From: Escherichia phage ECCR664 | Length of the DNA stretch: 64,000 bases | Strand: one strand, 5' to 3' | Sequence record: OL631257.1 | Shown here: piece by piece, positions 11,263 through 30,566 of the stretch | Position numbering within the stretch: the stretch's first letter is position 1 | How the letters are laid out: every line of letters begins with the position of its first letter | Made by a program: the position numbers and the translations under genes | The notes under the pieces: model-generated | What the model was told of the DNA's origin: nothing | The model's input: the letters and a program-made list of their open reading frames with translations, nothing else | Databases searched by the model: none

Positions 11263-11544
11263 TTACTTATCGCACTTAGCAACATAATTAGGCATATCAC
11301 AGAATACGGAGCGAGTAACTACTCGACCCTTTGACCATGCTTCAGTTGCTTGTCCGGCAGTGCTATTAATATAGCTTGATTTGATATTCTCAATACCCTG
11401 AGAATGTGATGCATTTACCGAACCGTTGGAAGGCCCAGAAGACTGGTTACCACCAGCTCCTGCACTACCGCTGGCTGCACCCGTGGTAGCACCAACAGAG
11501 AACGCCATCATTACTGCGAATAAACCAATTACTAATTTTTTCAT
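11263..11544 (-). CDS. secreted Gly/Ser-rich protein with N-terminal signal peptide
   Basis: 'MKKLVIGLFAVMMAFSVGA' signal-like N-terminus, then a low-complexity G/S/A region; 93 aa. Confidence 0.55.
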   Translation of the reverse strand: MKKLVIGLFAVMMAFSVGATTGAASGSAGAGGNQSSGPSNGSVNASHSQGIENIKSSYINSTAGQATEAWSKGRVVTRSVFCDMPNYVAKCDK

Positions 11545-21062: not shown

Positions 21063-21344
21063 CTATTTTTCTGAAGCGCCTGAAATATATTTTTCAAGAC
21101 GTTGTTTCATCAGCGAGCCGTTCTTAGCGATTTCTTCCGGTTTATCACACATACGCAACAAGGCTTCAAGCTTAACGATATCACTGGTGCGCTCAAATTT
21201 GCGAGTATCTATCTTACTAGCAAGTTCAGAAATACGTGCTAATAGACTTTCAGCTTCAACCAAAGCTGCACCTAGCTTAGTTGCAAATGTGTCAGTAGCT
21301 TCGTTAAGAATAGATTCTGATAAAAATTCACTATATGTTTTCAT
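21063..21344 (-). CDS. internal-protein-like protein with capsid targeting sequence (IPIII-like)
   Basis: Starts '[10 protein letters not shown]'; start overlaps the stop of e (ATGA). Confidence 0.55.
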
Positions 21345-21829
21345 ATATACGCTTTCCAAGTTCCTGTTTTAAATGTTGAGATTACGCGTTTCGCGCGATT
21401 AGGTGTCTGACGATACCATTTAGATTGGGCTAGATTTACTGCCGCTTCATCCCAACGTTTCTGTTGAAGCATACGAAGAGAATTAGTAAAACCGGCGACG
21501 CCTGCTACTCCCATTTGGAAGACCATATTGACCAATGCACATCGACGAACCGCGTCTAAAGAATCATACACCGGTTTAAGTTTAGCATTACCCAAGATTC
21601 CGCGAACGGCTTTATCAACATCTTCATTAAATAGCTTTTCAGCCTCATCAAGGGTAATTGTACCGTTACATTTACGGCCGACCATTCTGTCAAGTTCAGC
21701 TTTAGCTACGGCTAAAGACGGGTTCTTTGTTACCAAATGGCCTATGCCAATAGTCCAAAAGCCTTCGGTGTCTTTGTATAAAGACAGTCTAAGACCTTCG
21801 TCATTACGAAGCATTTCAAATATATTCAT
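21341..21829 (-). CDS. e: endolysin (T4 lysozyme, gene e)
   Basis: '[32 protein letters not shown]' matches T4 lysozyme including catalytic Glu11, Asp20 and Thr26; GGAGG ribosome-binding site upstream. Confidence 0.95.
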
Positions 21830-21863
21830 AATACCTCCCACGTTTATAGGAGGTATTTATTAC

Positions 21864-22322
21864 TTATAGGAGGGTAGTGAGCACCTTATATAATGATTTG
21901 CCCATTACATATTCCCATTGAGAAGGTTTAATTAAAGCGAATGCATCAAATTCAGGAATCTGACGTCCGTCTGGGAATGTATGATAGGAATTACAAACAC
22001 TGTTTCTGAATTGCTCGTGCTCTACAGGGATGGTATATAGGAACAGATGAATATTCTTATTGTCTGAGTAATGATGTTCACCTAGGTCTTTCAGGAAGGC
22101 AGGGTCATATTGTGTAAACCCAGTTTCTTCTTCGCATTCACGAATAGCGGCTTCAATAGGAGATTCGCCAGGTTCGACACGGCCTTTAGGAATATCCCAC
22201 CGATGAGCTAAAGAACCTTTAGGACGAGAACCAGTTACACGTCCCATGAATAATTCTTTATCTTTTGTCATGAAGATAATACCGGCTGATAGTTCTTTCA
22301 CTTTATTTTTCTTACTCATCAT
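21864..22322 (-). CDS. nudE: Nudix hydrolase NudE
   Basis: Nudix box 'GRVEPGESPIEAAIRECEEETG'. Confidence 0.9.
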   Translation of the reverse strand: MMSKKNKVKELSAGIIFMTKDKELFMGRVTGSRPKGSLAHRWDIPKGRVEPGESPIEAAIRECEEETGFTQYDPAFLKDLGEHHYSDNKNIHLFLYTIPVEHEQFRNSVCNSYHTFPDGRQIPEFDAFALIKPSQWEYVMGKSLYKVLTTLL

Positions 22323-22324
22323 CT

Positions 22325-22562
22325 CGGTCCCATGATTTGGCCATTAATTCGGACATAAATTCTTCAATACGCGTTTCTTTAGATGGACTTTCACTATTAG
22401 AGACCGCGAGTTTGTAATCTGCAATAGGACGGAACAAATCAAGGTCCATATTAAGATCGTCTTTGATTTTTCTTCTGACACATCTTTATCATATGTGTAC
22501 AGATAACTATCACACGATTCTGATTTAATGTAAATTGCTATACTCATCTCAAATTCCTGCAT
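22325..22562 (-). CDS. small acidic hypothetical protein (frameshift suspected)
   Basis: ORF 22344..22562 plus an alternative frame. Confidence 0.3.
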
Positions 22563-23035
22563 TCAGTTATAAAACGTTCAACTTCATTATTCTTGGCCTT
22601 TATCTTGTCTTTACGTTCCTGTAAACTACTTTTAACAAGATTAATAATGATGGCGGCGGTACCGCCGCCAATGATGCCACCAACAACACTTATGATACTA
22701 GATGCTAATAAGATAGCAATAATATCAACAAAACCGAAAGAACTAACCTTAGTACTAAAAAACCATACCGACGGTACAAATATAATCCATCCTGTTATCC
22801 ATTGGCACTTATTGAAAAACTTTTCAAGCTCAGCTTGAGTTGTTCGTATTACTTCATCGATAGGTTGATATCCATTAATGTATCTGTTCACGATAATACC
22901 TGCTGGCTGGTCGATTTTAAATTCTTGACAAATACGTTTCACTAAGTAGGATGGACATCCTGTCCAATCCACTGAATAGTACGAAATACCTTCATTGTCA
23001 TCGTCAATATTAGACCAATATGTTTTGTTAATCAT
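22544..23035 (-). CDS. membrane protein (Gly-zipper TM segment)
   Basis: 'ILLASSIISVVGGIIGGGTAAIIINLV' hydrophobic segment. Confidence 0.45.
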   Translation of the reverse strand: MINKTYWSNIDDDNEGISYYSVDWTGCPSYLVKRICQEFKIDQPAGIIVNRYINGYQPIDEVIRTTQAELEKFFNKCQWITGWIIFVPSVWFFSTKVSSFGFVDIIAILLASSIISVVGGIIGGGTAAIIINLVKSSLQERKDKIKAKNNEVERFITECRNLR

Positions 23036-23720
23036 TACCAGCCTTCCATAGGGAATTCCAGATAAACTTGGGCATTGACACGAATTTCATTGGTAATCTT
23101 TTTAACTCGGTCTGTATTACGAGATACACGTCCGAACCAACGCCATCCATTACTAATTGCACGAGAACCAGTGTGCCATGTTTGCCAATCGAACTGAAGA
23201 AGAGTACGGTCTGGAGCTTCCCATTTCTCTAGTTCACCTTTTTCAATTTTTCGAGGACTTCTTTGTGCCATTGGCGATAGATAAGTTCGCCATCAGGAAT
23301 CTGGCTGAACTCTGCAGTTCCTGTTGCAAAATGAGTAGGACACACATCAGCGTTAACAAGGCCAAGAATATGTTCAGACAAATAGCGAGGATTGTCATAG
23401 TCGGGTTGTCCTGCAGTAATAAAGTGTTGACCAACCGGAATATCCGGGCGTGGTACATCGTCATGGTGATAACCTGGGATAGCAGGGTACCAACCAGGCA
23501 TCAGCATGTGGACTCGTGAATCAAATACAACCTGGTCGGTGTTCCAATCATCTGGCAAGTTCATAATGAAGCTGCGAGTAATAGGACCGCCGTTATTATA
23601 AGCAAATTCTAAACTACAGTTGAAGAACATAGGCTCGTTCTTGATTTTATCATTAGAAATACCGCCGGCAAAACCACCTACTGCACGAGCTTGACTATTA
23701 AACACTTTAGAACTATTCAT
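23035..23720 (-). CDS. 2OG-Fe(II) oxygenase-like protein, frameshifted about 23229-23271
   Basis: 'YHHDD' (HxD) and a distal 'WHTG...RWFGRVS' (His ... RxS) pattern typical of 2-oxoglutarate oxygenases, across ORFs 23229..23720 and 23035..23271. Confidence 0.4.
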
Positions 23721-23767
23721 ATTATTTTCCTCGACATTCTTTAATGAAATTTTCTAGATTGGTAGAT

Positions 23768-24027
23768 TCAATAGCTTTTTACGAGCTTCTGAGTGTTCTT
23801 CTTCTGACAATTTACGTTTATAATTGACCCAGACATTATGGTCGAAACCAGTCGTGGCATATAATAACAATGCTCCAACGAATAGCAAAAACGGCGATAA
23901 GAATACAAAACCAGGAACACCATCCATATCGTAAGCCTTTTGTAATACTGCAACAGAAAGAGTTACGTAAAAGGTGATGCAAGTATTGTTAAAAGACCAA
24001 TTCGGTTGGTTTCTGTTAATTTCATAA
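23768..24027 (-). CDS. small membrane protein (frameshift suspected)
   Basis: ORF 23768..23953 with a hydrophobic N-terminus. Confidence 0.3.
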
Positions 24028-24052
24028 TATTCTCCTCATGTTTTAATAGGAC

Positions 24053-24083
24053 TACTATAATATAGCCCTATCAGTTTGTACAC
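24053..24083 (-). promoter_or_regulatory. T4-type early promoter
   Basis: Minus strand GTGTAC, 17 nt, TATAGT in the 'aataggactactataatatagccctatc' element. Confidence 0.45.
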
Positions 24084-24302
24084 TTATTTTGACATTTCTT
24101 CGATGTCACGACGATACCCATCACGAACTTCACGAAGAGCTTCAAGGCCACACATAGGCTCGATACCAGTAATGTGAACTTGATTAATCTGATACTCTAC
24201 ATCTTCTAACTGAGCGAAAACATAACGACGTTCTGCTGCACAACCAGGTTTAGCTTTACCGAAACGTTTATTCAAAGTAGTCATTTTTATATCTCCATTC
24301 AC
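24084..24302 (-). CDS. hypothetical protein (72 aa)
   Basis: ORF. Confidence 0.4.
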   Translation of the reverse strand: MNGDIKMTTLNKRFGKAKPGCAAERRYVFAQLEDVEYQINQVHITGIEPMCGLEALREVRDGYRRDIEEMSK

Positions 24303-24318
24303 TCATTTGTTTTGATAG

Positions 24319-24352
24319 GTCTATAGTATCAACAACTACAGACCTTGTAAAC
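24319..24352 (-). promoter_or_regulatory. T4-type early promoter
   Basis: Minus strand GTTTAC, 17 nt, ATACTA/TACTAT. Confidence 0.45.
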
Positions 24353-24364
24353 AGTTTTGTGAAA

Positions 24365-24901
24365 TTATTTGAAAGGTTTTACCATATGGAAATTTTGTTT
24401 GAAACGTTTTACGTAATCGTCATGTCCTAAGCTTTGGTACATACTTACTACTTTGCTGTAGTTTTCCCAGGCGTATTCACGGAACCAACCGGAGGTGATG
24501 CTTGTGCAGACTTTTTCTAATGCCATCATGAAACTGGCTTCAGGGTTAATTTCAAAGTTATTAGGAATCTGAGAACGTTCTAATGCTAGTACACATGATT
24601 CTTCGTATACACCGGCCAATTTGACCATTTCTGGTAATGATTCGAACTTCTCGCGTGAGGTCATGACTTCAGAACCATCTTTCATGTAAAACGTATAAGC
24701 AGGGCGGTCTGTTAGTGCAATGGCTTCGTGAATAGTATCATGGTCATATGTATAGATGTCATCTTTAAAGAATGCGCTTTTAGAAGTGTCAAGAACCGGG
24801 TGAGCATAGTTCAAGGTTTCTTTCTGGCGTTTCAGCATAATTTCAGTAAGTTCATCGTTCAGTGTAACACCTTTACCACGAAGATACTGAATATGGTTCA
24901 T
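24365..24901 (-). CDS. hypothetical protein (178 aa)
   Basis: ORF; 5 nt downstream of 24907..25320 on the same strand. Confidence 0.45.
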   Translation of the reverse strand: MNHIQYLRGKGVTLNDELTEIMLKRQKETLNYAHPVLDTSKSAFFKDDIYTYDHDTIHEAIALTDRPAYTFYMKDGSEVMTSREKFESLPEMVKLAGVYEESCVLALERSQIPNNFEINPEASFMMALEKVCTSITSGWFREYAWENYSKVVSMYQSLGHDDYVKRFKQNFHMVKPFK

Positions 24902-24906
24902 AGTCT

Positions 24907-25320
24907 TTAAAAGAATGGATTATTTTTCTTGAAACGATGGGACATCTTAATTGCAAGACACATCTCAGGAGTTGCCCAGTAAAACCCGTTCAAACGGTCT
25001 TTAGTCAAATTTTTCTTGGCATATTTTAAAAGGTCATAAGAAGACGTGAAATCTTCAGGAGTGAGTTCACCGACTAATTCACGGACATTAGTGATTGCCG
25101 GAACAATATATGCTTCAAAATGAGTTTCGCGTCCATTATGGAAGCATTTGAAAACTTGGACATCAGGGTTATCTTGGTGGACATATACACCCATCATTTG
25201 ATTTTTGAATGCATTCCAAGAACCTTGGTCTGCAATAAAGTCCCAGTCACTATTTTTGATAGCGTTAGAATCAATAAGTCCGTGATAGTGAAGTGCACGA
25301 GAACCAATAACTAACATCAT
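24907..25320 (-). CDS. hypothetical protein (137 aa) with weak NTase-like N-terminus 'VIGSRALHYHG...SDWDF'
   Basis: ORF; the motif match is weak. Confidence 0.4.
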   Translation of the reverse strand: MMLVIGSRALHYHGLIDSNAIKNSDWDFIADQGSWNAFKNQMMGVYVHQDNPDVQVFKCFHNGRETHFEAYIVPAITNVRELVGELTPEDFTSSYDLLKYAKKNLTKDRLNGFYWATPEMCLAIKMSHRFKKNNPFF

Positions 25321-25343
25321 AATATTTTCCTCGGATTAATTAA

Positions 25344-25605
25344 CTTAAATTTCGCGACATGCGATATTATATTCATCCCAGAGGTCGTCATGTGAAGCCT
25401 CTACCAATGGAACGATTGTACCGTTTATGTCTTCATTATAAGGACAAATTGTACAGTGCGCATCTTCGAATCGGATGCCTTTGTGTTCAGATTTTTATAA
25501 CGCATATCGAATATCTTTGCAAACTTTTCACGAGTAATGGTTTTAGCAACCACTTTAGTTCCGATACTTTCGTAATAAATCATTGTGGACTCCATTTAAT
25601 TTGAT
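25344..25605 (-). CDS. small Cys-containing hypothetical protein, frameshifted
   Basis: 'MESTMIYYESIGTKVVAKTITREKFAKIFDMRYKNLNTK' then '...FEDAHCTICPYNEDINGTIVPLVEASHDDLWDEYNIACREI' in another frame. Confidence 0.35.
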
Positions 25606-25611
25606 AGGACT

Positions 25612-25641
25612 ACTATAACATAGCCCTATCTTGTTGTAAAC
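25612..25641 (-). promoter_or_regulatory. T4-type early promoter
   Basis: Minus strand GTTTAC, 17-18 nt, TATAGT. Confidence 0.5.
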
Positions 25642-25645
25642 TGTT

Positions 25646-25843
25646 TTAGCAAGAATAACTAGATGATACCCAGCCTTGAACAGTAATACTATTATTTGAT
25701 ACCGAGATTGCGTTCTGGAGATTCAGACCTGCGTTATCTTCAATCCATAATGTAACTTCTTCGCGTTCTTCTGTTGCAATTTGGAACAGGTTTTCCAGGG
25801 CAGCTACTGCCGTACGTACAGCACAATCTAATTCACGAGACAT
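25646..25843 (-). CDS. small protein, tandem paralog family member 3 (C-terminal 'GWVSSSYSC')
   Basis: 65 aa; shares its C-terminal motif with 25853..26124 and 26134..26439. Confidence 0.5.
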   Translation of the reverse strand: MSRELDCAVRTAVAALENLFQIATEEREEVTLWIEDNAGLNLQNAISVSNNSITVQGWVSSSYSC

Positions 25844-25852
25844 ATGATTTCC

Positions 25853-26124
25853 TTAGCAAGTGTGAGAAGATGCAACCCAACCACCAGTTTCGAGGCTCAG
25901 GTTATAGTCGTATTGGTAAACGTCGGCCCATTCAGCATAGCCGTTTTTGTACAACGTTCAAGATCGGCTTTAAGATGTCCTGGCGAATGATAGGTTCCAC
26001 CCATACCATAAGCTGGATACAAGTCGAATGTTGTGTTTTGTTTATCAGCAATTTCTTTGGCAGCCTCAATAGCTGCATAGATTTTTGCTACGGCTTCAGC
26101 CAGTTCGGTTTGTTCTTTAGACAT
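25853..26124 (-). CDS. small protein, tandem paralog family member 2 (C-terminal 'GGWVASSHTC'), frameshifted
   Basis: ORF 25897..26124 'MSKEQTELAEAVAKIYAAIEAAKEIADKQ...GGTYHSPG' plus a shifted C-terminus. Confidence 0.45.
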
Positions 26125-26133
26125 AATGATTCC

Positions 26134-26439
26134 TTAGCACAACGCAGAAGACGAAACCCAAGCACCTTCAGTAATAACGTAACCATTACCTTCACGCTTA
26201 ACATCGCCACCATTATTTTCAATTTCATTTTTCATCCATTGGGATACGATTTCACCCTTAGGATAATAAGTACGACCGCTACCATAATCACCTACAGAAA
26301 ATGATACGGCATATTGGTCTGCGATCTTTGTTGCTTCTTCTTCGATACGTTCAGCTTGATTCAGAAGTTTATAAATTGCATCTGAAGCGGATTTGGCATC
26401 ATTAAACTCTGGTACTTTAATTTCAATAATCTTACTCAT
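26134..26439 (-). CDS. small protein, tandem paralog family member 1 (C-terminal 'GAWVSSSALC')
   Basis: 101 aa 'MSKIIEIKVPEFNDAKSASDAIYKLLNQAERIEEEATKIADQ...GRTYYPKG'. Confidence 0.5.
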   Translation of the reverse strand: MSKIIEIKVPEFNDAKSASDAIYKLLNQAERIEEEATKIADQYAVSFSVGDYGSGRTYYPKGEIVSQWMKNEIENNGGDVKREGNGYVITEGAWVSSSALC

Positions 26440-26795
26440 TTTCTACATTCCTTAATAAAGTTTTCTATTGTTTCATTTTCACGTCTAGCTAGGAGTTCAT
26501 TATAACTAATCATTTGAGAAGCGTAAACCTTTTTATTTTTCTTGTTATGGTTTATAAAATCGTAGTAAAAATAGACTACAGTACAAAAGGATGCGATGGA
26601 TGCAAAGGCTTGGGTGTACCGTAAGTCCTGCCATTGGTCTGTGAATCCACCGGTGTTCCCTATAAATCCTAACACAACCCCGTCAATAAGAAATCCAACT
26701 AATCCAAAGGCAAATCCCATGCCAATACTCATAATAAAAATTAGAATGTTCTCACCAAGAGACGGCCATACGGTTAAGAGTTGAGGCTTTTGCAT
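26436..26795 (-). CDS. membrane protein
   Basis: 'ILIFIMSIGMGFAFGLVGFLIDGVVLGFIG' hydrophobic segment. Confidence 0.5.
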   Translation of the reverse strand: MQKPQLLTVWPSLGENILIFIMSIGMGFAFGLVGFLIDGVVLGFIGNTGGFTDQWQDLRYTQAFASIASFCTVVYFYYDFINHNKKNKKVYASQMISYNELLARRENETIENFIKECRK

Positions 26796-30366: not shown

Positions 30367-30409
30367 TATATACCTTGTCGGGGTTTCCACCTACTAAGGC
30401 AAGTGTTTG

Positions 30410-30566
30410 TACGAAACGCCGGGATTCGAACCCGGTTATTAAGCAGTTGACGCTACTCAATATTTTTAAAGGCCATATCTCGACCATATCCGAACGTTCC
30501 GTCAAAAACGCTACTCGGCTTACGGCAAAGATATTTCCTCGAATCGATAATTCTGTGCGCCGTTTC
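30410..30566 (-). ncRNA. tRNA-like small stable RNA (candidate T4 species 1/2-type RNA) or degenerate tRNA
   Basis: Canonical T-arm 'CCGGGTTCGAATCCCGG' and acceptor-like 3' end, but about 155 nt long with no clean cloverleaf. Confidence 0.3.

Follow-up and report, generated by a model that had tools for sequence, protein, structure and literature searches.

Two overlapping open reading frames (ORFs) on the minus strand of Escherichia phage ECCR664 raise the question of whether they are the parts of one broken gene, and whether that gene encodes an Fe(II)/2-oxoglutarate (2OG) oxygenase. They lie in a window of 64,000 nucleotides (sequence record OL631257.1), by which we mean the whole stretch of DNA that was analyzed. 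A first-pass annotation had proposed that the two ORF pieces together encode about 228 aa, that they are one gene split by a frameshift, and that the product contains the motifs YHHDD and WHTG...RWFGRVS. Its coordinates matched the ORF list exactly, and both motifs were read in the sequence. The gene, its pieces, and the residues discussed below are located as follows.

23035..23720, minus strand: whole gene, 686 nt, homologue of RB69ORF132c and JS09_050, PHROG 1843
23229..23720, minus strand: N-terminal ORF piece, 163 aa, of which residues 1-158 are true and are followed by five out-of-frame codons (LKKVN*)
23035..23271, minus strand: C-terminal ORF piece, 78 aa, containing true residues ~158-228
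23247..23251, minus strand: frameshift site, an A5 run (T5 on the plus strand) that is A6 in relatives; 1-base deletion
23460..23468, minus strand: codons of H85-H86-D87 (H85, 23466-23468; D87, 23460-23462), the proposed HxD pair of Fe(II) ligands
23173..23175, minus strand: codon of H183, the proposed distal Fe(II) ligand, in predicted strand 182-185
23122..23142, minus strand: codons of R194-W-F-G-R198-V-S200 (R194, 23140-23142; R198, 23128-23130; S200, 23122-23124), the proposed site for the 2OG C5 carboxylate, in predicted strand 192-201

When the two pieces were joined, a protein of 228 aa was obtained, equal to the intact annotated gene in relatives. The coding sequence of these relatives (SA79RD and JS09) is unbroken and comprises 687 nt, that is, 228 codons plus the stop codon. 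The single ORF of the relatives and the alignment with them thus bore out the proposal of one gene split by a frameshift. In the window, the N-terminal piece has H85-x-D87 but neither the distal His nor the Arg residues; the C-terminal piece holds H183, R194, R198, and S200. The ATG and the first seven residues (MAQRSPR) of the C-terminal piece are spurious, and its true frame begins at about K158/I159. In the joined protein, GYHHDD occupies residues 83-88, and WQTWHTGSRAISNGWRWFGRVS, which carries the motif WQTWHTG...GWRWFGRVS, occupies residues 179-200.

Megablast assigned the region to Mosigvirus (RB69/JS09-like, T4-type), with matches in 239 phage records, the best of which was 97.6% identical. 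The surrounding genes are given below.

21341-21841, minus strand: e lysozyme, same-strand neighbor
21864-22322, minus strand: nudE, same-strand neighbor
22544..23035, minus strand: e.2-like membrane protein, downstream neighbor, whose start codon overlaps the stop codon of the oxygenase gene (TAATG)
23722..24025, minus strand: homologue of RB69ORF133c, upstream neighbor, a small membrane protein of 101 aa in relatives

The oxygenase gene is placed between the ORF133c and e.2 homologues, as in JS09 and SA79RD, where it is annotated as hypothetical and similar to RB69ORF132c. The RB69ORF133c homologue is itself broken twice in the window, at ~23776 and ~23969 (T5 to T4 and A6 to A5), and is represented by three overlapping ORF fragments. 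In T4, e.2 directly abuts e.3, so that no oxygenase gene stands between these two genes, in keeping with the expectation of the first-pass annotation. Compared to T4, Mosigvirus has an insert of about eight genes (ORF132c to ORF139c) between e.2 and e.3, at ~23035-26500 of the window on the minus strand; the oxygenase gene is the first gene of this insert, on its e.2 side.

The joined protein matched PHROG 1843 ("unknown function") over its full length (residues 1-228, E 5e-96). A search of a large protein collection yielded 1290 homologues at E <= 1e-3, and the best of them, from phage vB_EcoM-172859UKE1, was 99% identical. The best 120 of the 1290 homologues showed at least 69% identity and came from T4-type phages of Escherichia, Aeromonas, Klebsiella, Citrobacter, Erwinia, and Serratia. 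An exhaustive HMMER scan resolved 622 clusters at the 50% identity level. Among the homologues listed, one UniRef cluster was automatically named "Phytanoyl-CoA dioxygenase family protein", and the others were hypothetical or unnamed. The longer homologues, of 260-444 aa, showed no informative fusion domains.

Conservation of the putative catalytic residues was analyzed in a motif alignment of 116 homologues whose identity to the reference protein was 30-81%. H85 and R194 were present in all 116, H183 and R198 in 115 each, and D87 in 113, with Glu in one more. Position 200 was Ser or Thr in 111 of the 116, and H86 varied freely. The family signature can be written as W-H85-x-D87 ... H183-x10-R194-x-F-x-R198-x-S/T200, and such conservation of the motif residues is more than chance. 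The pattern HxD...H...RxS, which had been singled out in the first-pass annotation, showed the strongest conservation within the family, and its His, Asp, His, and Arg residues are co-linear in the single corrected chain of 228 aa, as they are in the 1290 intact homologues. In the AlphaFold2 model, H183 (strand 182-185) and R194, R198, and S200 (strand 192-201) fell on consecutive predicted strands. Because R194, R198, and S200 are at alternating strand positions, they would face one side. Judging from sequence position and strand topology, H85, D87, and H183 would likewise meet at one site. A 2-His-1-carboxylate triad together with a site for the 2OG C5 carboxylate is the arrangement known in the Fe(II)/2OG oxygenase superfamily, and the arginine 11 residues after the distal His presumably corresponds to that of human phytanoyl-CoA hydroxylase (H264/R275).

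The AlphaFold2 model, built on a 71-sequence alignment, had a pLDDT of 90.2 and a pTM of 0.87. Its strands follow a jelly-roll pattern; the double-stranded beta-helix core for which the first-pass annotation had advised a structure prediction was predicted, with a pLDDT of 90. Residues 91-110, after the HxD motif, formed an unusually long loop of low model confidence. The top matches of the model in a Foldseek search against the PDB were Fe/2OG oxygenases only, namely, ColD, HygX, proline hydroxylase H11, SptF, MysH, and SnoK, with E values of ~3e-4 and TM-scores of 0.3-0.47. Among the viral models in BFVD, members of the same family ranked first and were followed by uncharacterized viral proteins and a few annotated as PhyH-like. 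At the level of fold and motif, these results supported the earlier reading of a 2OG-Fe(II) oxygenase-like protein.

A jelly-roll (cupin/DSBH) protein that is not a 2OG enzyme, being instead another metal-dependent enzyme or a ligand-binding protein, could have the same core. Indeed, no 2OG-oxygenase sequence model detected the protein. The Pfam search with the joined protein and 116 diverse homologues gave no 2OG family above threshold; the gathering threshold of PhyH (PF05721) was not reached, and only one of the 116 homologues matched it (E 0.068). A search of the NCBIfam models likewise gave no match. In sequence and profile searches of the PDB, the only near-threshold matches were BesD-type Fe/2OG halogenases; these cover the segment with the distal His and Arg, and their E value of ~0.7 is not significant alone. 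Furthermore, two homologues weakly matched the cupin-type AraC_binding family (E 0.003), the non-oxygenase cupin-like protein YjgK appeared at Foldseek rank 48, and the structural scores are modest. On the other side, the likeness of the predicted structure to the 2OG superfamily is distant but one-directional, with no competing superfamily, and we regard a jelly roll of non-2OG type as improbable.

The break in the gene was then considered at the level of single bases. In a three-way alignment, the window reads CTCGAAAAATTG, whereas both SA79RD and JS09 read CTCGAAAAAATTG. The corresponding span measured 1003 nt in 29 of the 30 closest phage records found by megablast, compared to 1001 nt in the query. 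In IMG/VR, no A5 form of the frameshift site was found, and the A6 form was found only twice, which is a small sample.

Indels were compared over the part of the window that can be aligned to JS09 (47.6 kb; window 1-48000). We observed 106 indel events, of which 93 were single-base. Deletions of 1-2 nt in JS09 runs of at least four numbered 68, compared to two insertions that extended a run. These homopolymer deletions affected 35 annotated genes, including NrdD, NrdG, endonuclease VII (gp49), tk, regB, and the dNMP kinase gp1, as well as gp3, gp4, the hub/lysozyme gp5, gp7, gp9, and gp10. A/T runs of six were counted 7 times in the window and 36 times in JS09, that is, ~80% of them were shortened; counts of runs of three to five were about equal in the two. 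A phage with frameshifted gp1, gp3, gp4, gp5, gp7, gp9, and gp10 could not propagate, indicating that the pattern is systematic homopolymer under-calling and that the oxygenase split is one instance of it. Under-calling of homopolymers is typical of nanopore-only or pyrosequencing-type assemblies. No viable phage could carry 68 deletions of this kind, which would break essential genes; the frameshift therefore arose in sequencing or assembly and is an artefact, not biology, and error is the default explanation for any single homopolymer site in the window. The missing A is the type of error found window-wide; the phage itself therefore almost certainly carries an intact oxygenase gene.

If the frameshift were real, the locus would be an oxygenase pseudogene, or only the 163-aa N-terminal fragment would be made; this product keeps HxD, loses the distal His (H183) and both arginines, including those proposed to bind 2OG, and would therefore be inactive. 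Such a loss could be expected of an accessory gene that is missing from T4 at the same position, and homopolymer runs are natural mutation hotspots too. Truncated or split versions are also present in other deposited genomes: phage EP32a has a 177-aa version, Aeromonas phage 65 (NC_015251, 182773-183458) gave three tblastn pieces, with ORFs of 143 aa and 86 aa, and PHROG 23363, of 73 residues, consists of C-terminal fragments (residues 156-228). However, the recurrence of the same deletion type across the 47.6 kb, essential genes included, the shortening of most A/T 6-runs in the window, and the lack of an A5 variant of the site in IMG/VR argue against a true lesion, which we consider very unlikely. 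A programmed −1 ribosomal frameshift on G AAA AAG (23236-23244 region), before the TAG, that would yield the full-length enzyme is so implausible that it was rejected, because close relatives all have one unbroken ORF, in whose frame AAA AAG does not occur: although the C-terminal piece is in the −1 frame, the AAA AAG lysine tandem is two codons ahead of the stop of the first ORF, and A AAA AAG is the classic dnaX slippery site of E. coli (slippage on A AAG being known as well), the heptamer here is G AAA AAG and not the canonical X XXY YYZ, the two-frame architecture is not kept in relatives, and the window-wide artefact fully accounts for the split, leaving this mechanism formally possible but unnecessary.

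We therefore propose, with a probability of roughly 0.85, that the locus is a single 228-aa gene for a phage-family Fe(II)/2OG oxygenase with predicted activity, split in the record by a missing-A artefact. The family is phage-restricted, stands outside Pfam and NCBIfam, and is placed in the Fe(II)/2OG oxygenase superfamily, where it is structurally closest to PhyH-like enzymes. The gene is formally undescribed, but it is a member of a known superfamily and not a new kind. From the above, we infer metal binding, 2OG binding, and catalysis by the protein. In the proposed mechanism, H85, D87, and H183 would hold Fe(II) as a 2-His-1-carboxylate facial triad inside the double-stranded beta-helix, and R194, R198, and S200 would bind the C5 carboxylate of 2OG. 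O2 and 2OG would then be converted to succinate, CO2, and a ferryl species, and the latter would oxidize the substrate, most likely by hydroxylation.

The family was detected by tblastn in 472 of 50,697 phage records. Homologues at 75-100% identity were found in Mosigvirus, Dhakavirus-type phages, and T4-likes of Aeromonas, Klebsiella, Enterobacter, Erwinia, and Serratia; a 49.8-kb Stenotrophomonas phage carries one at 69% identity, and phages of Mycobacterium, Gordonia, Bacillus, Acinetobacter, Pectobacterium, and Cronobacter carry homologues at ~30% identity. The genomes of 185,579 bacterial and archaeal species contained only 24 loci, whose neighbors included DnaB, T7-type primase-helicase, SSB, ERF, YopX, replication protein O, DNA methylases, and phage lysozyme. 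Because of these replication-type and phage neighbors, the 24 cellular loci represent prophage or phage DNA, and the family is essentially phage-restricted and located in early/replication modules.

The accessory gene is unusually conserved, with ~80% identity between Escherichia Mosigviruses and Aeromonas jumbo T4-likes. Such high conservation points to strong constraint, to recent horizontal transfer, or to a combination of the two.

Neighboring genes were clustered for 30 divergent viral locus groups and 18 "cellular" loci. Recurrent neighbors in the 30 viral groups were DNA polymerase A (7 groups) and T7-type primase-helicase (5 groups), followed by HNH endonuclease, NAMPT, RNA ligase, and DNA ligase (3 groups each). 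No dedicated partner gene emerged from either set, in which the neighbors were of generic replication or early type, DnaB and SSB among them; thus, they do not permit inference of a substrate. An RtcB-like RNA ligase gene was seen one to five genes upstream of the homologue in Mycobacterium phage Auspice (65-4181) and Gordonia phage Lozinak (1827-4166), and an Rnl-type RNA ligase is a neighbor in three other divergent viral groups. The RtcB association was weak and did not generalize beyond the two actinophages, and the proximity of RtcB, RNA ligase, and NAMPT may be chance within early-gene modules.

For the substrate, a nucleic-acid or nucleotide-related candidate is slightly favored, because the gene is in early/replication modules of very different phages. 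By analogy to the closest structural neighbors, a free amino acid or another small metabolite is about equally possible as a candidate. A further-reaching and rather doubtful proposal is that the family forms a phage-specific Fe(II)/2OG branch with a reaction new for phages, acting on a nucleic-acid base or nucleotide, on a translation factor or tRNA, or on a host-defense small molecule. This would fit the identity retained between the Escherichia and Aeromonas phages, the spread of the family among unrelated phages that infect Actinobacteria, Firmicutes, and Proteobacteria, and the constant place in early/replication modules. As a member of the Fe(II)/2OG superfamily, the protein can be regarded as one more uncharacterized oxygenase beside the many known in phages, which poses no new question without a substrate. 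The predicted catalytic residues named here nevertheless supply a structural and functional hypothesis for a widespread family that is nearly always recorded as "hypothetical protein".

The protein was compared to a set of PhyH-like enzymes, namely, EasH (4nao), ColD (8xpf), EctD (4nmi), EvdO2 (4xac), proline hydroxylase H11 (7dzz), and human PAHX (2a1x). It is only 9-14% identical to them and is shorter (228 aa compared to ~250-290 aa). Unlike these enzymes, it is extended behind the HxD motif by a long conserved insertion (residues 89-115) and carries a second near-invariant Arg (R198) with Ser or Thr at position 200. Furthermore, the phage family is found in replication modules and not in biosynthetic clusters.

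Among oxygenases of phages, those of T4-like cyanophages offer the nearest comparison. Their 2OG-Fe(II) oxygenase and PhyH genes are accessory and lie in hyperplastic regions, and their substrates are not known (PMC3037559). The present gene is likewise an accessory Fe/2OG gene of a T4-type myovirus, and PhyH-like proteins are among its weaker BFVD matches. However, the cyanophage family is PHROG 61 (PMC12774648), a different sequence family from PHROG 1843, to which the window protein belongs with no Pfam match. The hosts also differ, being enterobacteria, Aeromonas, and others in one case and cyanobacteria in the other, and the 2OG/NtcA link to nitrogen signaling proposed for the cyanophage oxygenases has no counterpart for the window protein. 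Fe/2OG oxygenases and PhyH-domain proteins of this kind are among the phage proteins most often structurally matched to human prolyl hydroxylase (PMC12774648).

Two families that act on nucleic acids were considered and rejected. For the AlkB family, neither the window protein nor any of the 116 homologues matched 2OG-FeII_Oxy_2 in Pfam, and the AlkB homologues ALKBH2, ALKBH3, and ALKBH5 ranked below PhyH-like enzymes as matches to the phage protein. An hhalign comparison of the family profile with E. coli AlkB gave a probability of 0.3% in an off-by-one register and was uninformative. The TET/JBP 5-methylpyrimidine dioxygenases are a different family and were absent from the structural matches. 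Oxidation of DNA bases is the demonstrated function of phage TET-like 5mC dioxygenases and T-dioxygenases (PMC8256090, PMC13229309); besides these, our literature search found no other phage Fe/2OG dioxygenase with a demonstrated function, and it found nothing on RB69ORF132c or a Mosigvirus dioxygenase.

The homopolymer pattern also bears on other features of the window. The sequence is unreliable at homopolymer runs, so that any frameshift, pseudogene, or odd tRNA call needs to be checked against relatives first. ARAGORN called a 94-nt "tRNA-Stop (anticodon tta)" at 30409-30502 on the minus strand, which has the look of a suppressor tRNA. The Rfam tRNA model did not match this element, and its JS09 counterpart, in which no tRNA was called, is identical save for a T4 run compared to T3 at ~30468. 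It is the homopolymer artefact that gives rise to the tRNA-Stop call; the underlying element is tRNA-like, has a good T-arm, and may correspond to rnaC/rnaD, the small stable RNAs of T4. Elsewhere, at 11463-11482, the window has a net insertion of 15 nt compared to JS09 (GCAC...GGCTGCACCC), which is not of homopolymer type and, by coordinate, lies at or near the JS09_085 homologue.
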